DNA from: Gammaproteobacteria bacterium
GTDB lineage: Bacteria > Pseudomonadota > Gammaproteobacteria > Ga0077536
Direction: 5' to 3'
Assembly (NCBI GenBank): GCA_965216305.1
Contig: OZ244144.1
Location: 4,172,941 to 4,236,940 of the forward strand
Length of the DNA stretch: 64,000 bases
A model generated the notes under the pieces. That model was given only the letters and a program-made list of their open reading frames with translations, did no database searches and was not told the origin of the DNA. Every line of letters starts with the position of its first letter. The stretch's first letter is position 1. The position numbers and the translations under genes were made by a program. Positions 6,545 through 18,817 of this stretch are shown here, piece by piece.

Positions 6545-9500
6545 CTAGGAGATGATCACGGTGATATCCGGATCAACGAGGAGTTGCGCGCCAATATCAC
6601 CGTGACCGTAGCTCGCGTAGCTGATCCCACCGATATCAACGGCATCGCCCTGCTGCCAGCCCTGCCCGGTGGATTCAACGGTGTCGCCACTGTCACCCTC
6701 GATGCGGAGTTGGCGTGTTGGCGCGTCGTCGAACAATGCGGCACGGTCCGGTAGTGCCAGTACATCGTGAATGTCGAATTTAACGGTATTGTTCCCGCTG
6801 CCGGTGAGGTCGATGACCTCGATGTTCTCGATATTGCGCGCATTATCGAAGTCGAGAACGAGCCCGGCGCCGGTAAATAACAAAGTATCGACGCCGCTGC
6901 CGCCATCAACTTTTGCCGTATCAGCCGGGTCGTAGATTAGCGTGTCGTCGCCGGCGCCGCCGTTCAGGGTGTCGTTACCCGCGCCGCCATCGAGCACGTC
7001 ATCCCCGCGTCCGCCAACAAGGATTTCGTCGTCTTCAGTGCCGGTCAGAGCGTCGTTCTCATCCTGCCCGAGAAAGTCCACCTTATCCGCAAAATCGCGT
7101 CCGAAAACCACGAACTCTTCGTTCGAAGTGTGTGTACCCGAGGTCCCGGAGTCGAGGTAAATATCGTCGAAACCGTCGCCATTGACGTCGCCGAGCGCAA
7201 CCACGACCTCGCCACGCGCCTGGTGACGGGCATAGCCGTCCAGGTAAACACCGTCACTCGTGCCCAGATTGTCGATGTCGACGCTGCCGGACTGATCCGG
7301 CGCGCCGAATACGATCGATACGCGGCCGGCGTTGTCGCGGCCATCGATGAGGTATTGCGGAGAACCTACCGCCAGATCGGCGTAACCGTCACCGTTAACA
7401 TCGCCGACCCCGAATACCCGGGCATCGAACGTGCTCTGGAATGTTGTGTGCGTGATCGCGAACCCGGCCTCGGGGCGTGATCCGTCGAGCAGGTATTGGA
7501 GGTCGTACAGTGCGCCGAACGCCTGTCCGCCGTAGACGACGGCGCCCGTCGTCCAGGTGTCTCCGCCGATGCTCCGGGTGTTTACCCGGACGACGAAGTC
7601 GTCGATGCCGTCGCCGTTGAAATCGCCAAGCGTATCGAACCAGCCGTCGCGCAAATCAACCGGATCTTCGTGCTCGTAGATGACGAACCCGTCCGCGCCC
7701 GGCGTAAAATCGCTGCTGTTCAGATCCGTTTGCGGATTTGCCGACGCGCCGCCAAAGACGAAGAACAATCCGCTCGCATGATGGGTGAGCGCGGAACGCG
7801 CGTCGACGACGATGTCGTCGTAGCCATCGCCATTGAAATCACCGCTGCGCAAGATTTCATAGCCCGGGCCAGGTGTCTGTCCGCTGTCGCCCGGCCGCGA
7901 TGCGGTGATGGTAAGCGCAAGCGATGGATCAAATTCCGTCGCCGCCGCATCCGTGAGTACCGCGACGCCGCCGAACCCTTCCGGTCGGCCCAGCACGATG
8001 TGTAATGTCCCGTTGTCGGAACGCAAGCCTTCGACGACGGCGAAATCCGCATAGCCATCGCCGTTGACGTCACCGACATCATGAACGAACCGCCCAAGGT
8101 CGTTGTACTCACCTGACCGAGAGGTAAACAACGTACCGCCCTGAGCCGCGTCACCCGCGGTTTCGATGTCGGCGAGGCCCGCAATTGAACCCGGGGCGCT
8201 GCCGTGCACAAGGATCACTTTGTCGTTGTAGAAGGAAGTGACGAGAAAATCGTCGTAACCATCGCCGTTGATATCGCCGAGCGCTGCTCCGGTTGTGTAG
8301 GGGTTATATCCCGATGCGAAAGCCGAGTCGTAATCGATTGCGGCGTGCAGATCGCCGGCATTCGCCACGCTGACCAGGCCGCCGCCGATGATGGCGACGT
8401 CGCGCTCGCTGTCCCCGTTTATGGCGATGAAGTCGGCGAACCCGTCACCGTCGAAATCGGACCCCGCGCTGATTTCGTGCGCGATGGTGAGGTCGAAATA
8501 ATAGCCGGCGCTGCCATCGCCGCCGTTCGCCTCCAGCAACGACGTCAGCGTCTCGTGTCCATCGAACGCGTCGAACACAATCGACCCGGTCGCCGTCGTC
8601 ACCGCCCCGCGATCGTCCGTTGCGGTGATCTGCAATGCTTTGTCGCCGAGCGCACTGCCAGGCGAGGTGTGGGTATACACAACATCACGCAAGAATCCGT
8701 ATGGTGTAACGTTGGCGATGTCCGGATCGATTTGTACGGTGAGTGTTCCGTTCTGACTATCGAAATCGGCCGTGATCCCGGCGACCTCCGGCGCAAGCAA
8801 CAAATCCAGTCCCGGTGAGTAGTCTCCGACTATCCGCATGATGACTTCCTCAATATGGCCATCAACGTCGTGGAGTCGATTCAGGGAAATACGCGCCGGT
8901 TGACCATATTCCGTGAATGCGGCTGCGATTGGACCAAGGGAGGAATAAAACTCGACGTCCGGTGCATCGTTGACGCCGACAAGCCGCAACGCCACCGTCG
9001 CCTGTGCCGTGCGACCCCAGGCATCCGTGACGAAATACGGTATGTCGAATAATTGCGTCTCGCCCTCCGCGAGCCAGTGCGCCGAGCCGTCCGCGTTGAT
9101 CTGTACGCGGATCTGGCCGCTCTCGTCGATGCTCAAAAACATCGGTGTCCGAATATACGGGTCGAGTCCAGTCGCTTGCAGTTGCAGCAGCGACGGGTCA
9201 CCGAGCAGGTGATCGTTGTCGAGGACGCTCGGCGTTATGTAGATCTCGGTGTCCTCGTCGAGATCGAACGCGGGTGTGGCACCATCGTCAAGCAATGTGA
9301 GCGGGGGTAAACCGGCGGTGACGCCGGTCTCGACAAGTAGCTCCGCGGCACCGGCGGCATAGCGAACGTAATCGACGCCTTCGAATTCGACCGCGGTGGG
9401 TGGACCAAACATTGTCTCGTCGAAAACGACGAAATCGCCGGTGTCGCCCACCACGCGCAGGCTGTGCGCGCTATCGGTCAGACGCAGCAAGGTGTCGAAA

Positions 9501-12500
9501 TCAACTACAAGCGCGTTCGCGCTACCGTCTGCGAGGTCGATAATTTCGATGTGTTCGAGTGCGAGCGTGCCGGTGCTCGCCACGATTGACGGCAAATGCA
9601 GATTGCGTCCGTGAACCACGAGCGTGTCCGTGCCGGATCCGCCATCCACCCGCTGCGTATCCGCTGCGTCATAGATAATCCGGTCGTTCCCCGCCGCGCC
9701 GATAATGACATCGTTGCCGCCGGCGCCATCGAGGTTGTCATCGCCGCGTCCACCGATGAGGATTTCGTCCGCCGCGGTGCCGACGAAAGTGTCCGCGGCG
9801 TCCGAGCCTTCGTAATCCACGGCGGGCACCGGCGTGTCGTCGATAATACTGACATCGCCGCGGCCAAAAATCACATGCATCTGTCCGCCGTAGTCCTGTT
9901 CCGACGGCAGGTAGGGCGCCGCGATGACGATATCGTCATAACCGTCGCCGTTCACATCCTCGCCGCCGACGACGTTCGCGAAATCGAGCCATAACGCAAG
10001 GTCGCTACTGTAGATTTGTATCGCTTCGTGCTCACCGAACCCGTCGATGCTGCGCGTACCGCTGATGCGGTCGCCGCCGAACACGACGTAGACCGACCCG
10101 GCATCATTCGGCGCTGCGCCGGAGCTGGTACCGGGGGCCGTTACGAGCAGGTCATCGTATCCGTCACCATTGAAATCACCGGCATGCGTTACATTCGCGC
10201 CAAAGAAATCGCCACTCGATACACCGTGGATGCGCAACCCATTGTCGCCCAGCGCATCGAGTTCCTCGGTCCAGCCGGTACGCTCGGCGCGACCGTAAAC
10301 GATCGTAATTTCACCGGTATCGTTCGAGCTTTCGCCGTGAGGGTTTGCGGTCGGCGCGGCAATCGCGATGTCGTCGAAGCCGTCACCGTCGAAGTCGCCG
10401 ATGCCGGCGACGGCGGCGCCGGTACGGTCGAGATCGTCGCGACCCTGGAAGACCGTGATATGACTGTCGACGAACTGATCGGGATTCAGCGCCCGATCCA
10501 CGCCCTGCGGCTGGCCGTAAATCAGAAACGCCGCACCCGGATCGGGGTCGAAATAGCTGATGGTGGTGCCGGCGACGCCGACGAGGAAATCGTCATAACC
10601 GTCGCCGTCGAAGTCGCCGGCCGCCGCCAGCGTGGACCCGACTTGCGCGCCCGGATAAGCGCCCGTGAGCGTAAAGCCCGGCAGGAATCCGGGGCTGAGC
10701 AACGTAGAGGGATCTTCGAGGCCACCGTAGACGACCATCGTTTGTCCGCCGTACGACCAGCCGGTGTCAAAGTTCACAAGCTGTGAGGCAACAGCGAAGT
10801 CGTCATAGCCATCACCATTGACGTCGCCGACGGCGGAAACCACGGTACTGAAATCGTACGCCGGCAGCGCCGGGCCGGTGATGCGGACCCCGTTTACGCC
10901 GTCAGTCTCGCTCGGCAAACGGAGCACATCGCCGAGATTTTCGCTGCCGCGTACGAGCACCGTATCCTGCGGAACATGGGCACCCTCCAGCGGTGCGCCG
11001 TCAACCGGATCAACCGGCTTGCCCGTCACGAGGTAATCGTCAAAGCCGTCACCATTCTCGTCACCGATCACGGTGACCGTGATGCCGACGAGCGCGTTCG
11101 CGCTTTCATGCACAAGCGTGTGCCCGGACTCGGCGAACACGTCTGCGGCGCCTAACCGAGTTCCGGGTTCGAGCGCGGCACCGGGCAACAGGTATGCAGT
11201 CTCCACGCCGTCCGCGCTGTAGCTGTGACCGTTCGACCAGACGATATCGGCGCGGCCGTCGCCGTCGAGAGCCCCGAGCGCGAGTGAGTTGAAACCGTAG
11301 AACAACTCGGGAAAATCACCGCTGACCCGGGTAATCAGTGGATCCTCGAACGCGAGGTCGATCTGGGCGGCGCCGTTGCCGAATACACCGGCAACGATCA
11401 CGGTGCCGTCTGGTGACGGCGGCGCGTTTTCGAACACGAGCCCATCGGCGATCTCGAGATACGCGCCGCCTTTGCGATACACGGTGCCACTCGACAGTTC
11501 ACTGAACGTAGCCGGCGCGTGCACCCAGCCAGTGCCCGCATCGACCCGATCGCCGACGTCACCGGTGATCGTCAGCAGGTAGTTATCCTGCGGCAACAGG
11601 AAGGCGTCTACATCCGACAGCTGCAAGCGGTTCAGCCCGCCGCCGGTGAGGTCGATCGTCTCGATACTCCACAGCGTCGCTTCGACCGCTATCGGTGCGG
11701 GCCTTATGACAATGTCGCCACCCCAATCTGCGTCAATAGTCACCAGCGGCGGCTCTTCCACGGCCACGGACGTTACTTCAACCTCGCCCCCACCCTGCCC
11801 GGTTCCGATCGTGATGCTGCCTGCGCTGCTGTCGTCCGGGAGCGCGAAGCTGAAGCTTGACGTGGCACCACCGGCTACCAGCGACGTCACTTCGACCCCA
11901 CCCGACAATTCCAGCACCCCGCCCGCACTGCTCGCCGGAGCGATGGGGGTCGGGTGCAGGGTGATTTCCGGTCCGATGTGGCCGAGCAACAGGGTGTCGA
12001 GTCCGGCGCCGCCATCGGCGAAGATGGTGGCGCCGATCCTGATAATCAGTGTGTCGTCGCCGTCGCCTCCGTACAGTTCGTCCGCGAGGCCGTCGCCGCC
12101 ATCGAGGTAATCGTTCCCACCGGCACCGTACAAGCGGTCGTCACCGTCCTGTCCGTACAGATGGTCGTCACCGTCGCCACCTTTCAGCAGATCGTTTTCA
12201 CCGCCGCCGTACAGTTCGTCGTCGCCGCGTTGCCCGGTGAGTTCGTCGTCGCCGTCGTCGCCGTACAGGCGGTCATTGCCATTGCCGCCTTTCAATACAT
12301 CGTTATCGTCACCACCGAAGATGCGGTCGTCACCGTTCTGGCCGTACAACTGATCCTTGCCGTCGCCGCCTTTCAGAAAGTCGTCGTCGGCAGCGCCGTA
12401 CAAGCGATCATTGCCATGCTGGCCATACAAGCGGTCGTTGCCATTGCCGCCTTTGAGTATGTCGTTGTGACGTTCGCCGAAAAGCTGGTCGTTGCCGTGC

Positions 12501-13006
12501 TGACCGTACAGACTGTCTTTGCCGTCGCCACCGTTCAGCAGGTCGTTATGCGCGCCGCCGTAGAGTTGATCCTTGCCGTGCTGACCATGCAGCTGATCAC
12601 TACCGTCGCCGCCTTTGAGCACGTCGTTATGGCGTCCGCCGTACAACTGGTCGTTGCCGTGCTGGCCGTGCAGATGGTCATTGCCGTCGCCGCCATTCAG
12701 AACGTCGTTGTGACGTTCGCCGAATAACCGGTCGTTACCGTGTTGGCCGTAGAGGCGATCGTTACCGTCGCCACCCATGAGAAGATCGTGATCGAGCTCA
12801 CCGTAGAGCTCGTCCGCGCTGCCTTGTCCGTAAAGCTTGTCGTTACCCGCGCCGCCGAACAAGCGATCCTTGCCCTGCCCGCCGAATGCCATGTCCCAAC
12901 CGGCGAGTCCGTACAGGCGATCGTTGCCGCCCTCGCCATGCAGGGCATCGCCCACCGCAGTTCCGATCAGCGTGTCGTCGGTATTGTTACCGCGTTTTGT
13001 CGCCAT
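6545..13006 (-). CDS. Giant (2153-aa) RTX-family secreted adhesin-like protein: N-terminal haemolysin-type Ca-binding nonapeptide repeats, central FG-GAP/VCBS (integrin-alpha-like) repeats, C-terminal type I secretion target domain
   Basis: About 35 GGxGxDxL(Y/F)G-type nonapeptides at residues 20-330. Repeated 'GDFNGDGYDDL/GDVNGDGYDDF' FG-GAP motifs. A second RTX block near the C-terminus. C-terminal 'DVLALPD...GDSGDTV...' T1SS signal-like domain. RBS AGGAG 4 nt before ATG at 13006. Confidence 0.85.
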   Translation of the reverse strand: MATKRGNNTDDTLIGTAVGDALHGEGGNDRLYGLAGWDMAFGGQGKDRLFGGAGNDKLYGQGSADELYGELDHDLLMGGDGNDRLYGQHGNDRLFGERHNDVLNGGDGNDHLHGQHGNDQLYGGRHNDVLKGGDGSDQLHGQHGKDQLYGGAHNDLLNGGDGKDSLYGQHGNDQLFGERHNDILKGGNGNDRLYGQHGNDRLYGAADDDFLKGGDGKDQLYGQNGDDRIFGGDDNDVLKGGNGNDRLYGDDGDDELTGQRGDDELYGGGENDLLKGGDGDDHLYGQDGDDRLYGAGGNDYLDGGDGLADELYGGDGDDTLIIRIGATIFADGGAGLDTLLLGHIGPEITLHPTPIAPASSAGGVLELSGGVEVTSLVAGGATSSFSFALPDDSSAGSITIGTGQGGGEVEVTSVAVEEPPLVTIDADWGGDIVIRPAPIAVEATLWSIETIDLTGGGLNRLQLSDVDAFLLPQDNYLLTITGDVGDRVDAGTGWVHAPATFSELSSGTVYRKGGAYLEIADGLVFENAPPSPDGTVIVAGVFGNGAAQIDLAFEDPLITRVSGDFPELFYGFNSLALGALDGDGRADIVWSNGHSYSADGVETAYLLPGAALEPGTRLGAADVFAESGHTLVHESANALVGITVTVIGDENGDGFDDYLVTGKPVDPVDGAPLEGAHVPQDTVLVRGSENLGDVLRLPSETDGVNGVRITGPALPAYDFSTVVSAVGDVNGDGYDDFAVASQLVNFDTGWSYGGQTMVVYGGLEDPSTLLSPGFLPGFTLTGAYPGAQVGSTLAAAGDFDGDGYDDFLVGVAGTTISYFDPDPGAAFLIYGQPQGVDRALNPDQFVDSHITVFQGRDDLDRTGAAVAGIGDFDGDGFDDIAIAAPTANPHGESSNDTGEITIVYGRAERTGWTEELDALGDNGLRIHGVSSGDFFGANVTHAGDFNGDGYDDLLVTAPGTSSGAAPNDAGSVYVVFGGDRISGTRSIDGFGEHEAIQIYSSDLALWLDFANVVGGEDVNGDGYDDIVIAAPYLPSEQDYGGQMHVIFGRGDVSIIDDTPVPAVDYEGSDAADTFVGTAADEILIGGRGDDNLDGAGGNDVIIGAAGNDRIIYDAADTQRVDGGSGTDTLVVHGRNLHLPSIVASTGTLALEHIEIIDLADGSANALVVDFDTLLRLTDSAHSLRVVGDTGDFVVFDETMFGPPTAVEFEGVDYVRYAAGAAELLVETGVTAGLPPLTLLDDGATPAFDLDEDTEIYITPSVLDNDHLLGDPSLLQLQATGLDPYIRTPMFLSIDESGQIRVQINADGSAHWLAEGETQLFDIPYFVTDAWGRTAQATVALRLVGVNDAPDVEFYSSLGPIAAAFTEYGQPARISLNRLHDVDGHIEEVIMRIVGDYSPGLDLLLAPEVAGITADFDSQNGTLTVQIDPDIANVTPYGFLRDVVYTHTSPGSALGDKALQITATDDRGAVTTATGSIVFDAFDGHETLTSLLEANGGDGSAGYYFDLTIAHEISAGSDFDGDGFADFIAINGDSERDVAIIGGGLVSVANAGDLHAAIDYDSAFASGYNPYTTGAALGDINGDGYDDFLVTSFYNDKVILVHGSAPGSIAGLADIETAGDAAQGGTLFTSRSGEYNDLGRFVHDVGDVNGDGYADFAVVEGLRSDNGTLHIVLGRPEGFGGVAVLTDAAATEFDPSLALTITASRPGDSGQTPGPGYEILRSGDFNGDGYDDIVVDARSALTHHASGLFFVFGGASANPQTDLNSSDFTPGADGFVIYEHEDPVDLRDGWFDTLGDFNGDGIDDFVVRVNTRSIGGDTWTTGAVVYGGQAFGALYDLQYLLDGSRPEAGFAITHTTFQSTFDARVFGVGDVNGDGYADLAVGSPQYLIDGRDNAGRVSIVFGAPDQSGSVDIDNLGTSDGVYLDGYARHQARGEVVVALGDVNGDGFDDIYLDSGTSGTHTSNEEFVVFGRDFADKVDFLGQDENDALTGTEDDEILVGGRGDDVLDGGAGNDTLNGGAGDDTLIYDPADTAKVDGGSGVDTLLFTGAGLVLDFDNARNIENIEVIDLTGSGNNTVKFDIHDVLALPDRAALFDDAPTRQLRIEGDSGDTVESTGQGWQQGDAVDIGGISYASYGHGDIGAQLLVDPDITVIIS
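12016..12946 (-). repeat. Tandem 27/54/81-bp periodic DNA repeats encoding the RTX nonapeptide block
   Basis: The protein shows 9-aa periodicity, with groups of 3 nonapeptides recurring. The antisense frame gives a spurious repetitive ORF (11954-12727). Confidence 0.6.
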
Positions 13007-17537: not shown

Positions 17538-17571
17538 GCTGATGGCGGCGGGCGTCCATGCACCCCAAACT

Positions 17572-17600
17572 AAAAAGGGTCCCGGTGGGACCCTTTTTAT
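17572..17600. terminator. Bidirectional rho-independent terminator (7-bp GC stem GGGTCCC/GGGACCC, loop GGT, flanked by A-run and T-run)
   Basis: aaaaagggtcccggtgggaccctttttat. It terminates the moaD-like gene on plus and the tRNA-like array on minus. Near-identical copies lie at 17741-17770 and 17907-17937. Confidence 0.6.
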
Positions 17601-17603
17601 GTT

Positions 17604-17740
17604 TGGCGCGCCCGGAAGGATTGATGGCTAAAGCGAAGTATCGCTTTAACCACCCCTGCGGGGCGCGCTCCGCGCGTCCAATCTTCCTGCGGAAGATTGT
17701 CGAACCGGGAGGCTCTCTCCAACCTGGACACAACAAATTA
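17604..17740 (-). ncRNA. tRNA-Arg-derived structured element (type 1, copy 1): T-arm-like 5' part + ~75-nt four-hairpin insert + authentic tRNA 3' end (ATCCTTCCGGGCGCGCCA), followed by its own terminator
   Basis: The last 18 nt are identical to the 3' end of the intact tRNA-Arg. It contains hairpins ATCTTCC-GCA-GGAAGAT, GCGCGC-GGAG-GCGCGC, CCCC-GCA-GGGG and a ~10-bp variable hairpin. The terminator is at 17572-17600. Confidence 0.4.
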
Positions 17741-17770
17741 AAAAGTGCCCCGGTGGGACCCTTTTAATTT
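17741..17770. terminator. Second copy of the palindromic terminator (slightly degenerate stem)
   Basis: aaaagtgccccggtgggacccttttaattt, immediately after the CCA end of the type-1 copy 2 element on the minus strand. Confidence 0.4.
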
Positions 17771-17906
17771 TGGCGCGCCCGGAAGGATTGATTCGAAAAA
17801 CGAAGACTCGTTTTCCTCACCCCTGCGGGGCGCGCTCCGCGCGTCCAATCTTCCTACGGAAGATTGTCGAACCGGGAGGCCCTCTCCAACCTGGACACAA
17901 CAAATT
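17771..17906 (-). ncRNA. tRNA-Arg-derived structured element (type 1, copy 2)
   Basis: About 92% identical to copy 1. Differences concentrate in one hairpin and keep it paired (GGCTAAAGCGA...TCGCTTTAACC versus GAAAAACGA...TCGTTTTCC). Confidence 0.4.
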
Positions 17907-17937
17907 AAAAAGGGCCCCGATGGGACCCTTTTTAATT
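17907..17937. terminator. Third copy of the palindromic terminator, directly downstream of the intact tRNA-Arg
   Basis: aaaaagggccccgatgggaccctttttaattt. Confidence 0.5.
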
Positions 17938-18014
17938 TGGCGCGCCCGGAAGGATTCGAACCTCCGACCCCCTAGTTCGTAGCCAGGTACTCTATCCAGC
18001 TGAGCTACGGGCGC
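17938..18014 (-). tRNA. tRNA-Arg (anticodon ACG), 77 nt including encoded CCA
   Basis: Minus strand reads GCGCCCGTAGCTCAGCTGGATAGAGTACCTGGCTACGAACTAGGGGGTCGGAGGTTCGAATCCTTCCGGGCGCGCCA. It folds into a canonical cloverleaf: 7-bp acceptor stem, D-arm GCTC/GAGT, anticodon loop CUACGAA, T-loop TTCGAAT. Very close to E. coli tRNA-Arg(ACG). Confidence 0.9.
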
Positions 18015-18220
18015 TATGTTTTGTTTCGCAATACTACAGTAACTTCATCCTGCTCTTTCCGGACACCGGTTCCAGCCCGGAAGGATGGATTCACAAACGA
18101 AGTTTCGTTTGTTCACCCCTGCGGGGCGCGCTTTGCGCGTCCAACTCGCTGCGCGAGTTTGTCGAACCTCCGACCCCCTAGTTCGTAGCCAGGTACTCTA
18201 TCCAGCTGAGCTACGGGCGC
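18015..18220 (-). repeat. 206-bp tandem unit (type 2, copy 1): tRNA-Arg 5' portion (nt 1-59, c18162-18220) whose T-loop is interrupted by a homologous ~75-nt hairpin insert, then a degenerate 3' acceptor (CCTTCCGGGCTGG) and spacer
   Basis: Exact 206-bp periodicity (18085/18291/18497). The D-arm through T-stem is identical to the intact tRNA. The insert is homologous to the type-1 insert, but hairpin 1 is ACTCGC-GCA-GCGAGT instead of TCTTCC-GCA-GGAAGA. Confidence 0.6.
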
Positions 18221-18426
18221 TATGTTTTGTTTCGCAATCTTACAGTAACTTCATCCTGCTCTTTCCGGACACCGGTTCCAGCCCGGAAGGATGGATTCAC
18301 AAACGAAGTTTCGTTTGTTCACCCCTACGGGGCGCGCTTTGCGCGTCCAACTCGCTACGCGAGTTTGTCGAACCTCCGACCCCCTAGTTCGTAGCCAGGT
18401 ACTCTATCCAGCTGAGCTACGGGCGC
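18221..18426 (-). repeat. 206-bp tandem unit (type 2, copy 2)
   Basis: Near-identical to copy 1 (loop variant GTA instead of GCA in hairpin 1 and in the CCCC-GNA-GGGG hairpin). Confidence 0.6.
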
Positions 18427-18640
18427 AATGTTTCGTTTCGCGATCTTACAGTAACTTCATCCTGCTCTTTCCGGCCACTGGTTCCAGCCCGGAAGGATGG
18501 ATTCACAAACGAAGTTTCGTTTGTTCACCCCTGCGGGGCGCGCTTTGCGCGTCCAACTCGCTGCGCGAGTTTGTCGAACCTCCGACCCCCTGGTTCGTAG
18601 CCAGGTACTCTATCAGGCTCCGCTACGGGCGCTGTGTTTC
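18427..18640 (-). repeat. 206-bp tandem unit (type 2, copy 3; most diverged tRNA part: D-loop CGGAGCC, perfect CCTGG/CCAGG anticodon stem)
   Basis: tRNA-like 5' fragment at c18574-18632. The array ends about 18640-18660. Confidence 0.5.
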
Positions 18641-18817
18641 GTTCCGCGATTCTACACCATTCGACCGTCGCACTGATGGCAAGCGCATCGAAGAGGCGGG
18701 ATTATCGGGATCGCGGGCGACAGTGTCAAACGATGATGGTTGTTCACACGCGACTGCCCTACTCCTTTGTTGCGTCGCAAAGTAAACTAGGGCCATCAAC
18801 AAATCCGGAGAGCGACG

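Follow-up and report, generated by a model that had tools for sequence, protein, structure and literature searches.

The array around the tRNA-Arg(ACG) gene described here is most probably a tRNA-Arg(ACG) operon carrying five divergent copies of the tRNA-linked repeats (TLRs) of E. coli, whose units would be read through and processed; we put the probability of this reading at roughly 80%. TLRs were first described by Egan and Landy in 1978 and catalogued by Rudd in 1999 (both as cited in PMC8144298), and in the E. coli literature that has accumulated since 1978 no function had been assigned to them as of the 2021 paper (PMC8144298). [quoted passage not shown] An earlier note on this DNA had held that the units were not a described class, a claim that is not supported: the two downstream units fit the published TLR definition (PMC8144298) and share the motif order and blocks of sequence with RtT and rrB, and judged by their sequences the units appear to be distant relatives of the E. 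coli TLRs RtT and RrB. Together with about 110 relatives, the locus in our window (the whole 64-kb stretch of DNA that was analyzed) extends TLRs beyond enterobacteria to other Gammaproteobacteria. What is new is the deep conservation of the TLR core, a four-hairpin core model backed by covariation, and the presence of cores within the D and anticodon loops of pseudo-tRNAs.

Layout of the tRNA-Arg(ACG) array

The array lies on the minus strand and comprises one intact tRNA-Arg(ACG) (17938-18014), three 206-bp units upstream of it and two units downstream, as the earlier note had proposed; the downstream units measure 167 bp. The intact gene is the sole tRNA called by ARAGORN in the window and scores 62.2 bits with the Rfam tRNA model; the tRNA scan gave the single tRNA-Arg that had been expected, and two of the interrupted copies reach 20 and 22.4 bits with the Rfam model, below threshold. 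Tandem Repeats Finder recovered both periods (206 bp, 3.4 copies, 96% matches, 17956-18647; 167 bp, 2.3 copies, 90% matches, 17566-17956), and no DNA is interposed between the repeats. A 29-nt piece of the core, GGACGCGCNNNGCGCGCCCCGNAGGGGTG, is present in five copies in the window, all on the minus strand and all in the array, where shuffled sequences give an expectation of zero, and ATCCTTCCGGGC occurs six times versus 0.35 expected. The flanking genes in the window are of housekeeping type (xanthine-dehydrogenase-like, ThiS-like, LamB/YcsF and luciferase-like). Independent short-read contigs from close relatives of the window organism end inside the array.

A strong predicted sigma-70-type promoter of the tRNA-Arg/TLR operon (TTGACA-17-GATAAT, 11 of 12 matches) lies on the minus strand at 18701-18729, ahead of the first unit, and a promoter of the same type precedes the orthologous tRNA-Arg(ACG) in one relative (L015). 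Each upstream unit has, in this order, a tRNA-Arg 5' part that runs to TTCGA, a core, and a 12-nt truncated tRNA 3' segment (R arm), which a loop of 6 nt separates from its inverted, partial copy (the L arm, with a GGAT end). In copy 1 these three parts span 18574-18632, where the D arm is degenerate (GTAGCGGAGCCTGATAGAG), 18499-18573 (hairpin 1 of the ACTCGC type; 90.1 bits with CM R1, a covariance model built from the new family alone) and 18459-18498. The corresponding parts are 18368-18426 (Rfam tRNA 20 bits, threshold 29), 18293-18367 (CM R1 89 bits) and 18253-18292 in copy 2, and 18162-18220 (Rfam tRNA 22.4 bits, sub-threshold), 18087-18161 (CM R1 90.1 bits) and 18047-18086 in copy 3.

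[quoted passage not shown] Downstream TLR 1 then consists of an L arm (imperfectly complementary to the tRNA 3' end), a small hairpin and GGTTCGA (17867-17903), a core with hairpin 1 of the TCTTCC type (17789-17866; CM R1 91 bits, RF02902 25.7 bits, sub-threshold), an R arm identical to tRNA positions 59-76 including CCA (17771-17788) and a terminator (17735-17770). TLR 2 repeats this order with an L arm, small hairpin and GGTTCGA at 17700-17736, a core at 17622-17699 (CM R1 78.4 bits), an R arm at 17604-17621 whose 18 nt repeat the tRNA 3' end exactly, CCA included, and a terminator at 17567-17603, after which a solo L-arm remnant, GGGGTGCATGGA (17555-17566), closes the last palindrome. A separate terminator had been assigned to each downstream unit, and a hairpin with a T run is indeed seen after each of the three CCA ends (17902-17937, 17735-17770, 17567-17603), of which a strict terminator scan flagged one.

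As first read from the letters, all five inserts interrupt the T loop at exactly one point, with TTCGA before them and ATCC behind; this point falls after A58. They measure 75 nt in the upstream units (18499-18573, 18293-18367, 18087-18161) and 78 nt in the downstream ones (17789-17866, 17622-17699). The 18-nt tRNA 3' end, ATCCTTCCGGGCGCGCCA, is complete in the tRNA itself (17938-17955) and, again in agreement with the initial description, CCA included, in both downstream units (17771-17788, 17604-17621; 18 of 18 nt), whereas the upstream units retain just its first 12 nt. Two units follow tRNA-Arg(ACG), the other three stand between it and the shared promoter, and the five cores at the locus fall within the one to five repeats of the TLR definition.

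On sequence grounds, the two downstream copies are canonical TLRs, and the three upstream copies are pseudo-tRNA fusions in which the 5' 58 nt of duplicated tRNA-Arg genes are joined directly to a core. In the downstream copies the L arm, as an imperfect complement, pairs with the 18-nt R arm and closes the core with a helix that mimics the acceptor/T stem. By analogy with the E. coli homologs, the array would be transcribed together with the tRNA from the promoter at 18729-18701, reading through weak internal terminators, and because the units end in the same sequence as the tRNA, enzymes that trim tRNA ends may excise them, giving predicted structured RNAs of about 130-170 nt. A terminator hairpin stands before each unit and may keep transcript levels low. 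Pairing of the L arm extends to the CCA end in many relatives, which makes these units unlike the substrate expected in tRNA-end processing. A protein would most likely bind hairpins 2 and 3, which are invariant, and the conserved linkers.

Structure and covariation of the core

The core is bounded by GGUUCGA on one side and by the last 18 nt of the neighboring tRNA on the other, and it reads C-AA, hairpin 1, UUGGAC, hairpin 2, hairpin 3 (CCCC-GNA-GGGG), UGA, hairpin 4 and GAAUCM. The four consecutive hairpins reported earlier were recovered, with a correction to hairpin 2, whose loop is GGA in the downstream copies only and AAA in the upstream copies. The assignment of hairpin 1 to a TCTTCC type in two copies and an ACTCGC type in three was correct, as were the three variants of hairpin 4.

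The conclusion that hairpins 1 and 4 are maintained by compensatory change is supported. In a set of 106 distinct copies, drawn from about 60 genomes, the share of paired cells was 97.6%, compared to 75.9% in shuffles, and 526 cells had changed on both sides, compared to 143, which bears out the compensatory change that had been claimed from the window copies. Hairpin 1 occurs in 64 distinct sequences and hairpin 4 in 68, with about 97% Watson-Crick pairing, and in the covariance-model alignment covarying pairs were found at eight of the nine positions of hairpin 1, all eight of hairpin 4 and two of five in hairpin 2. Hairpins 2 and 3 and the linkers are kept in sequence across distant lineages, and the two hairpins are nearly fixed within the new family; in the wider family that includes E. 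coli, the motif order and hairpin 3 persist and the sequence of hairpin 2 differs. Folding of single sequences gave z-scores of -3.2 and -2.6, with folds that do not exactly reproduce the consensus helices.

A strand test of the core helices counted 21 G-T versus 13 A-C mismatches, a modest excess that is suggestive at most, so the structure could work as single-stranded DNA and not as RNA; for the helix of the L and R arms the counts were 30 G-U and 20 A-C, from an ungapped and noisy alignment. A GNA triloop with a C-G closing pair is a typical mark of highly stable hairpins in DNA. The invariant hairpins, and the occurrence of the core on different tRNA scaffolds, offer concrete handles for functional tests.

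TLRs of E. coli and other known systems

Like the downstream units of the window, RtT/rttR of tyrT-tyrV (RF00391), an annotated ncRNA in E. coli, lies directly downstream of a tRNA in the same operon and is built of tandem units (178-bp period, four RtT matches). RtT and the downstream units of the window both end in the last 18-19 nt of the tRNA including CCA, have the same T-loop start, and share an order that runs from an L arm with a GGAU end through GAGAA, a small hairpin and GGUUCGAC to four hairpins, CCC-GAA-GGG among them, and then GA.UAAUCC. The TLRs of E. coli tyrT read GGAUGAGAA, GGUUCGAC, a hairpin, CGUUGCC-GCA-GGCAACG, CCC-GAA-GGG, CGA, a hairpin, GAGUAAUCC and the 19-nt 3' end of tRNA-Tyr. 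One stretch is near-identical between E. coli and a Woeseiaceae unit (GGGTGAGGAGCGAAGCGACGAATAATCC versus GGGGTGAGGAGCGCAGCGACGAATCAATCC), and TLRs also follow argV, argZ and argQ, which encode tRNA-Arg(ACG) in E. coli.

Several features set the window units apart from RtT. Their sequence similarity is too low for a report by the Rfam RtT model (threshold 45 bits), which gave no match in the window at E up to 10; two relatives, L058 and L011, reached 30-39 bits, still under the threshold. Hairpin 2 is GCGC-NNN-GCGC in the window family but CGUUGCC-GCA-GGCAACG in E. coli RtT. Moreover, E. coli RtT has no terminators between units and an L arm of about 10 nt, whereas in the window every unit comes with a separate terminator that makes up a long palindrome together with the arms, and the fusion of a full tRNA 5' part to a core, as in the upstream units of the window, was not seen in the E. 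coli loci examined.

The TLRs RrA, RrB and RrF, located between T1 and T2 of rrnA, rrnB and rrnD, have the same four-hairpin core and finish with 18 nt that exactly match the 3' end of the stable RNA before them, as in the window, although they are linked to 5S rRNA and the window units to a tRNA. In both settings the units lie between two terminators and would be reached by read-through. At one of the new loci (L041), a D loop holds a core almost identical to that of the rrB type, which has the linker GAAC and hairpin 4 GGCGGGCAGGACGCCCGCC-AUAA. E. coli rrB scored 35.5 bits with CM R1 (E about 1e-9), its four hairpins all aligning in register, and the four RtT units were the top four matches in their locus; the window units themselves score 78-91 bits. 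Since the window units fall under all Rfam thresholds, their TLR membership rests on this transitive chain together with our own model. Transcription and processing evidence has been reported for RrA, RrB and RrF, which bind CsrA and Hfq in vitro and have hairpin loops with GGA motifs, and for the tRNA-linked TLRs the predictor used by the same authors returned a low probability of CsrA binding (PMC8144298). The window cores have GGA nowhere but in the UUGGAC linker and, in the two downstream copies, the hairpin 2 loop.

Of the Rfam families, RF02902 (AaHKsRNA22) alone aligns to the window cores; it is an Aggregatibacter sRNA detected by RNA-seq (PMC5909427), and the main text of that paper does not mention sRNA 22. 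Its four hairpins and GA-rich linkers are in register with the window cores, and its hairpin 2 resembles that of the E. coli TLRs. The Rfam scan proposed for the insert found an aligning family, at 24.9-26.7 bits, but one that misses the gathering threshold of 39.8.

Short structured inserts in the D, anticodon and T loops of tRNA genes also include archaeal non-canonical tRNA introns and organellar GC-cluster/hairpin elements. The archaeal introns lie within functional genes, from whose transcripts they are excised at bulge-helix-bulge motifs, whereas the interrupted copies in the window are pseudogenes in which no splicing signal was identified. Analogies to a primer-binding site of retroelements (18 nt from the 3' end), a folded attP like that of CTX phage, a TnpB omega-RNA-like guide and rolling-circle multimers were considered and found unsupported.

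Relatives in other genomes and the origin of the core

A search with the core pattern returned 82 genome loci, about 70 of them genuine and gammaproteobacterial; 13 of the 82 matches are an unrelated Firmicute repeat, GGACGCGCaATGCGCGCCCCTACGGGGTG, as is the one match among viral contigs, where the core was not found. At nearly all of the genuine loci, the core lies 100-200 nt downstream of a gene for tRNA-Ser, Arg, Glu, Val, Met or tmRNA, always in the orientation of that gene and ending in the gene's own 3' end. The tRNA 5' half is absent from the commonest form of the element. The family reaches into Woeseiaceae, Alcanivoracaceae and further Gammaproteobacteria of marine and groundwater origin. 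Among plasmids, a distant-mode BLAST with the array as query matched tRNA-Arg alone.

It is possible, though unlikely, that the core is a small non-autonomous mobile or selfish element that inserts site-specifically into stable-RNA genes. It would enter single-stranded loops (the T, D and anticodon loops of tRNAs and the loop A region of 5S rRNA) after (U/G)CGA or GGA and before A, survive only in redundant or partial gene copies and spread among the tRNA loci of a genome, the tRNA-like arms being target DNA outside the element. Pseudo-copies of tRNA-Ser(CGA) at L041 argue for this, with cores in the D loop (GGTCGA/.../ATGGG) and in the anticodon loop (CTCGA/.../AATCAGG) that are flanked on both sides by unbroken tRNA sequence, always in sense orientation and with no target duplication. 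The rrB core lies in a 5S-derived context (GTAGGA/.../ACTGCC), and cores also occur in tandem with the junction GAATCA/CAA. Across all of these contexts the junctions are TTCGA/C, GGTCGA/C, CTCGA/C and TAGGA/C, with no duplication, and copies are confined to stable-RNA contexts. Furthermore, cores that sit at different tRNA types in a single genome resemble one another more closely (mean identity 0.75) than do those at the same tRNA type across genomes (0.69), and L015 shares the neighbor pxpA and the promoter type with the window but has no counterpart of the three upstream copies.

Against such an element, no autonomous partner was found, and none of the 82 loci has an open reading frame inside the core. 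An IS200-type TnpA query had no match in the window or at 86 loci, and hairpins 1 and 4 are unrelated in sequence, so the similar hairpins at both ends that belong to the IS200/IS605 type are likewise missing. A transposase-like gene at L015 was rejected as a partner, having a weak match to REP-associated tyrosine transposases (42 bits, cut-off 80) and its own flanking repeats (GGGACACCCAC), which are unlike the core. Copies are few per genome and each adjoins a stable-RNA gene, within-genome similarity could stem from gene conversion, and a deletion running from the GGTTCGA of a tRNA to that of the TLR behind it can produce the upstream fusions seen in the window. Insertion of this kind is compatible with the TLR identity of the units and would account for the origin of TLRs; if it holds, it explains the origin of all of them and makes the core a bacterial counterpart of mobile archaeal tRNA introns.

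That the units are purely DNA-level palindromes with no RNA role, such as REP-like sequences or tandem-inversion duplications at terminator and T-arm hairpins, is improbable. In the window and at L031, L036, L054 and L073, the tRNA 3' end, terminator and L arm do form one long palindrome, and the core contains GNA triloops. However, hairpins 2 and 3 and the linkers are conserved in sequence across distant lineages, the core is always oriented as the tRNA, and the E. coli homologs are transcribed and processed (PMC8144298), rttR being annotated as an ncRNA.

The alternative offered by the earlier note, a pile-up of attL/attR scars from tyrosine-recombinase elements targeting the tRNA 3' end, with the insert as attP-arm DNA, is very improbable and was not borne out. 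The direct repetition of the 18-nt tRNA 3' end speaks for it. So does the choice of neighbors, tRNA-Ser, tRNA-Arg and tmRNA genes being classic island targets. Apart from upstream synteny of orthologous tRNAs, the gene-neighbor survey, which covered integrases, reverse transcriptases and transposases, found only an integrase 266 nt beyond the last unit at L017 and an integrase fragment at L034, that is, two of about 70 loci; at about 68 of the 70 only housekeeping genes follow, as in the window, where nothing separates the repeats. The island at L017 displaced a tRNA 3' half that already bore two units, so the units are older than the island. The core is in no viral contig, att scars cannot account for the copies in D loops or those linked to 5S rRNA, and stems that vary but stay paired suit a single-stranded structure and not duplex arm sites for protein binding.

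Least probable of all is a short structured T-loop intron of tRNA-Arg genes, removed to yield a functional tRNA: although the insert lies exactly between tRNA positions 58 and 59, has a conserved structure and in three copies follows a full tRNA 5' part, its removal gives no tRNA, the acceptor 3' strand being replaced (CGGGCTG-G-AAC instead of CGGGCGC-G-CCA, with five of seven acceptor pairs left), the D arm of copy 1 is degenerate, an intact tRNA-Arg gene adjoins the interrupted copies, none of which is called as a tRNA by ARAGORN or Rfam, the commonest form elsewhere has no tRNA 5' half, and Rfam finds no group I core, intron or ribozyme family in the window at E up to 10. For annotation, such arrays are better labeled as TLRs and pseudo-tRNAs than as novel introns or att sites. 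One TLR, rrB, lies within the rrnB T1-T2 region. That region has been copied onto many cloning vectors.

A tRNA-Arg(ACG) gene flanked by repeated units

All features of the array lie on the minus strand, around a tRNA-Arg(ACG) gene (17938-18014; Rfam tRNA score 62 bits) that ARAGORN returned as the sole tRNA in the 64 kb. Tandem Repeats Finder resolved a 206-bp repeat (3.4 copies, 96% matches) that takes in the tRNA and the sequence upstream of it, and a 167-bp repeat (2.3 copies, 90% matches) on its downstream side. The 29-nt core GGACGCGCNNNGCGCGCCCCGNAGGGGTG is present five times and at no other site in the window, the shuffle expectation being zero. Each of the three upstream units consists of tRNA-Arg nucleotides 1-58 (to TTCGA), a 75-nt insert and ATCCTTCCGGGC, after which come a loop of 6 nt, a partial copy in inverted orientation with GGAT at its end, and a leader of 32 nt. 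The two downstream units begin with TTGTTGTGTCCAGG-TTGGAGAGnGCCTCC-CGGTTCGA and a 78-nt insert, and close with the complete 18-nt tRNA 3' end ATCCTTCCGGGCGCGCCA, a hairpin and a T run. A sigma-70-type promoter (TTGACA-17-GATAAT; 18729-18701, minus strand) is located upstream of the first unit. Long, near-perfect palindromes, each centred on a terminator loop, join the tRNA or unit 3' end, the terminator and the L arm that comes next (17555-17621, 17735-17788 and 17902-17955), and the series ends with a solo L arm, the last in the array (17555-17566, minus strand). The array is thus real, and its careful description in the earlier note agreed in every material detail with ARAGORN, Rfam and the mapping of repeats and coordinates. 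A 2153-aa open reading frame (6545-13006, minus strand) lies 4.5 kb from the array.

A scan for the core pattern, with one genome per species, returned 82 loci, 13 of which were an unrelated Firmicute or actinobacterial repeat. The remaining loci were mostly from MAGs labelled Woeseiaceae or unclassified Gammaproteobacteria, other labels including Alcanivoracaceae, Wenzhouxiangellaceae and Chromatiaceae. Their common layout is GGTTCGAC, hairpin 1, T-GGAC, hairpin 2, hairpin 3 and TGA, then hairpin 4, GAATC(A/C), and ATCC with a tRNA-type 3' end closing with CCA. At nearly every locus ARAGORN placed an intact, co-oriented tRNA-Ser, Arg, Glu, Val, Met or tmRNA gene 100-200 nt upstream, and each unit has the same 3' end as its own upstream tRNA. 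In most units an L arm stands 5' of GGTTCGA; it is the reverse complement, with imperfections, of the tRNA 3' end, and GAGAAC and the short hairpin GAACC-NNNN-GGTTC come after it. Long palindromes of tRNA 3' end, terminator and L arm, centred on the terminator loop, were also found at four comparison loci (L031, L036, L054, L073); the arrays are therefore tRNA 3' fragments in alternating orientation, a pattern consistent with tandem-inversion duplication via template switching at terminator and T-arm hairpins.

Chance matches to the pattern consisted of a short repeat, GGACGCGCnATGCGCGCCCCTACGGGGTG, unrelated to the core (loci L005, L013, L020, L021, L024, L037, L044, L048, L051, L053, L062, L063, L067 and L083), carried by genomes labelled Oscillospiraceae (Avoscillospira), Betaproteobacteria and Nocardioides and by one viral contig.

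Covariation in the core hairpins

In our own parse, hairpin 1 occurred as 64 and hairpin 4 as 68 distinct sequences, with about 97% of their stem positions Watson-Crick paired. A covariance model (R1), built from 15 seed sequences with no enterobacterial sequence among them, found 111 copies at E < 1e-9 in 70 sources, exactly five of them contributed by the window. In the R1 alignment, which is fitted to the model and so biased toward it, but with which the independent parse agrees, pairing was present in 97.6% of cells compared to 75.9% in column shuffles, and both-side changes in 526 cells compared to 143; when the 3' partners were slid by 1-3 columns, pairing fell to 27-62%. Both-side changes affected eight of nine pairs in hairpin 1, all eight in hairpin 4 and two of five in hairpin 2, while hairpin 3 and the linkers were almost invariant. 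Selection on hairpin structure, as first proposed for the window alone, is borne out by these figures. Mismatches were G-T in 21 cases and A-C in 13, hinting that the structured strand is the sense strand, an excess that fits RNA and single-stranded DNA alike.

There are further types of core, as units following a tRNA-Ser(UGA) at L001 (1900-2460, minus strand) show: they retain the L and R arms as well as GAGAACC and GTTCGAC, but between these have longer, different hairpins in place of the standard core, for which R1 gives a score of only about 27 bits. At L071 (4300-4640, minus strand) the sequence after a tRNA-Gln consists of an inverted copy resembling an L arm and of GGATTTGAACC-CGAAAGAA-GGTTCGAAC, the four-hairpin core being absent, an arrangement that may represent an 'empty' unit.

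Relationship to the tRNA-linked repeats of E. coli

The inserted segment had been taken for an undescribed class, a claim that did not hold: the array belongs to a known but neglected class, the tRNA-linked repeats (TLRs). E. coli has 22 TLRs, first described in 1978, which are spread over ten operons of tRNA or rRNA with between one and five at a locus (PMC8144298). The tyrT-tyrV-rttR region of E. coli K-12 contains four RtT units at 178-bp spacing, each with GGGGAAGGAUGAGAAGC-UUCGACCAA-GGUUCGAC, a hairpin, CGUUGCC-GCA-GGCAACG and CCC-GAA-GGG, followed by CGA, AGCGC-GCA-GCGCU, GAGUAAUCC and UUCCCCCACCACCA. This block order is the same as in the window-type family, one stretch is almost identical in a Woeseiaceae unit (L058), and the top four R1 matches in the locus are the four RtT units. 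The rrB element of the rrnB T1-T2 region comprises GAC, AAAUCCGCC-GGGA-GCGGAUUU, GAAC and GUUGC-GAA-GCAAC, then G-CCC-GGA-GGG, UG, GCGGGC-AGGA-CGCCCGC, C-AUAA and the 5S 3' end, and R1 matches it at 35.5 bits (E about 1e-9), each of the four hairpins aligning in register. The Rfam RtT family (RF00391, threshold 45) scored 35-39 bits on the L058 units and 30-37 bits on those of L011. For the window units the sole Rfam match, RF02902 (AaHKsRNA22), aligned all hairpins but reached only 25-27 bits (threshold 39.8). Because formal Rfam thresholds are missed, we limit the claim to the class and conclude that the window elements are divergent TLRs rather than members of RF00391. A shorter TLR lies after each of the E. 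coli tRNA-Arg(ACG) genes argV, argZ and argQ, and the pairing of this tRNA with a TLR is therefore not unique to the window. The array as such would be no surprise to a TLR specialist; deep conservation, a structure model and cores embedded in loops make the 45-year-old TLR question more testable.

The E. coli rrnB T1-T2 region (L085, 300-425) holds the full four-hairpin core of rrB. Copies of the region are widespread on expression vectors, and rrB would therefore be on many plasmids. Rfam sX4 (RF02223), a proteobacterial sRNA, gave repeated matches of 28-39 bits (threshold 70) spanning tRNA-Ser and the TLR start at L025, L036, L011, L041 and L075, and may be another catalogued sRNA overlapping TLR-type loci.

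Alongside the anatomy, conservation, covariation, operon context and homology established here, the homologues suggest how the units may work. They would be transcribed from the tRNA promoter through terminator read-through, released at ends set by the copied tRNA 3' sequence, and would persist as structured RNAs; the L/R helix may mimic the stacked acceptor and T stems, and a putative binding surface would be provided by hairpins 2 and 3, which are invariant, together with their linkers. In E. coli, the rttR annotation begins just past tyrV and stops at the first repeat's CCA. The rrn-linked TLRs are transcribed by read-through of the rrn terminator T1, have ends that RNase E processing could have produced, and are bound by Hfq and CsrA in vitro, a link shown for rrn-linked members only (PMC8144298). 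The csrA gene lies directly upstream of a TLR-array-bearing tRNA-Ser(GCU) gene at L025, L027, L046, L050, L064 and L075, and in E. coli (L086, 3462-3647) it precedes the serV-argV operon, with a TLR following argV. Given the CsrA binding in vitro, this proximity may be a lead, but conserved synteny alone may account for it.

Upstream fusions and alternative explanations

The three upstream units are pseudo-tRNAs: just 12 nt of the tRNA 3' end are left after the core, the acceptor 3' strand and CCA being replaced, the D arm of copy 1 is degenerate, and two of the 5' parts score 20-22 bits, below threshold, with the Rfam tRNA model. Locus L015 resembles the window in having pxpA (LamB/YcsF family) as a neighbour, a promoter of the same type and an identical tRNA-Arg(ACG); two and a half TLRs lie downstream of this tRNA, but upstream copies are absent, and the fusions are therefore lineage-specific. 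Comparable fusions occur at L016, L065, L009 and L070. They could have arisen by deletion from the GGTTCGA of a duplicated tRNA to that of the following TLR, or by direct insertion of the core. Three independent short-read assemblies encoding an identical PxpA (L087, 1-420; L088; L089) have contigs that break inside the array; in L087 the first interrupted copy is joined straight to the spacer preceding the intact tRNA, reflecting either collapse during assembly or a variant with a single copy.

That the core is a mobile or selfish element, which would be compatible with the TLR reading, is possible but rather improbable. At L041, in a Gammaproteobacteria MAG (6660-7700, minus strand), seven cores surround a single intact tRNA-Ser(CGA); upstream, two pseudo-copies of it have cores in the D loop (GGTCGA-core-ATGGG, an rrB-like core type) and the anticodon loop (CTCGA-core-AATCAGG), with contiguous tRNA sequence on both sides and no duplication, and three canonical units lie downstream. 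Cores were also more similar between different tRNA types within a genome (0.75) than within one tRNA type between genomes (0.69), a likeness that gene conversion could also explain, and related loci yielded neither a transposase or integrase for the core nor an autonomous version of it. A 344-aa gene at L015 (1927-3200), 1 kb from the TLR array, weakly matches REP-associated tyrosine transposases (42 bits, cut-off 80); it was rejected as a partner of the core, being flanked by its own inverted repeats (GGGACACCCAC/GTGGGTGTCC), which are unrelated to the core.

Palindromes acting only as DNA are unlikely, as orientation is fixed, unpaired linkers are conserved and the E. coli homologues are transcribed. 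An intron in the T loop is rejected, since no tRNA could form from the exons. The reading of the array as piled-up att scars of integrative elements, offered in the earlier note as an alternative to structured RNA, fails likewise: no element lies between the repeats, the flanking genes are housekeeping genes, and an island at L017 displaced a tRNA half already bearing its units. At this locus (1500-2200) a tRNA-Arg(ACG) 3' half that starts in the anticodon loop precedes two TLRs and then an opposite-strand tyrosine integrase gene; the arrangement resembles an island's distal end, the island having integrated in the anticodon loop and displaced the tRNA half with its TLRs. An integrase fragment occupies the matching position at L034.
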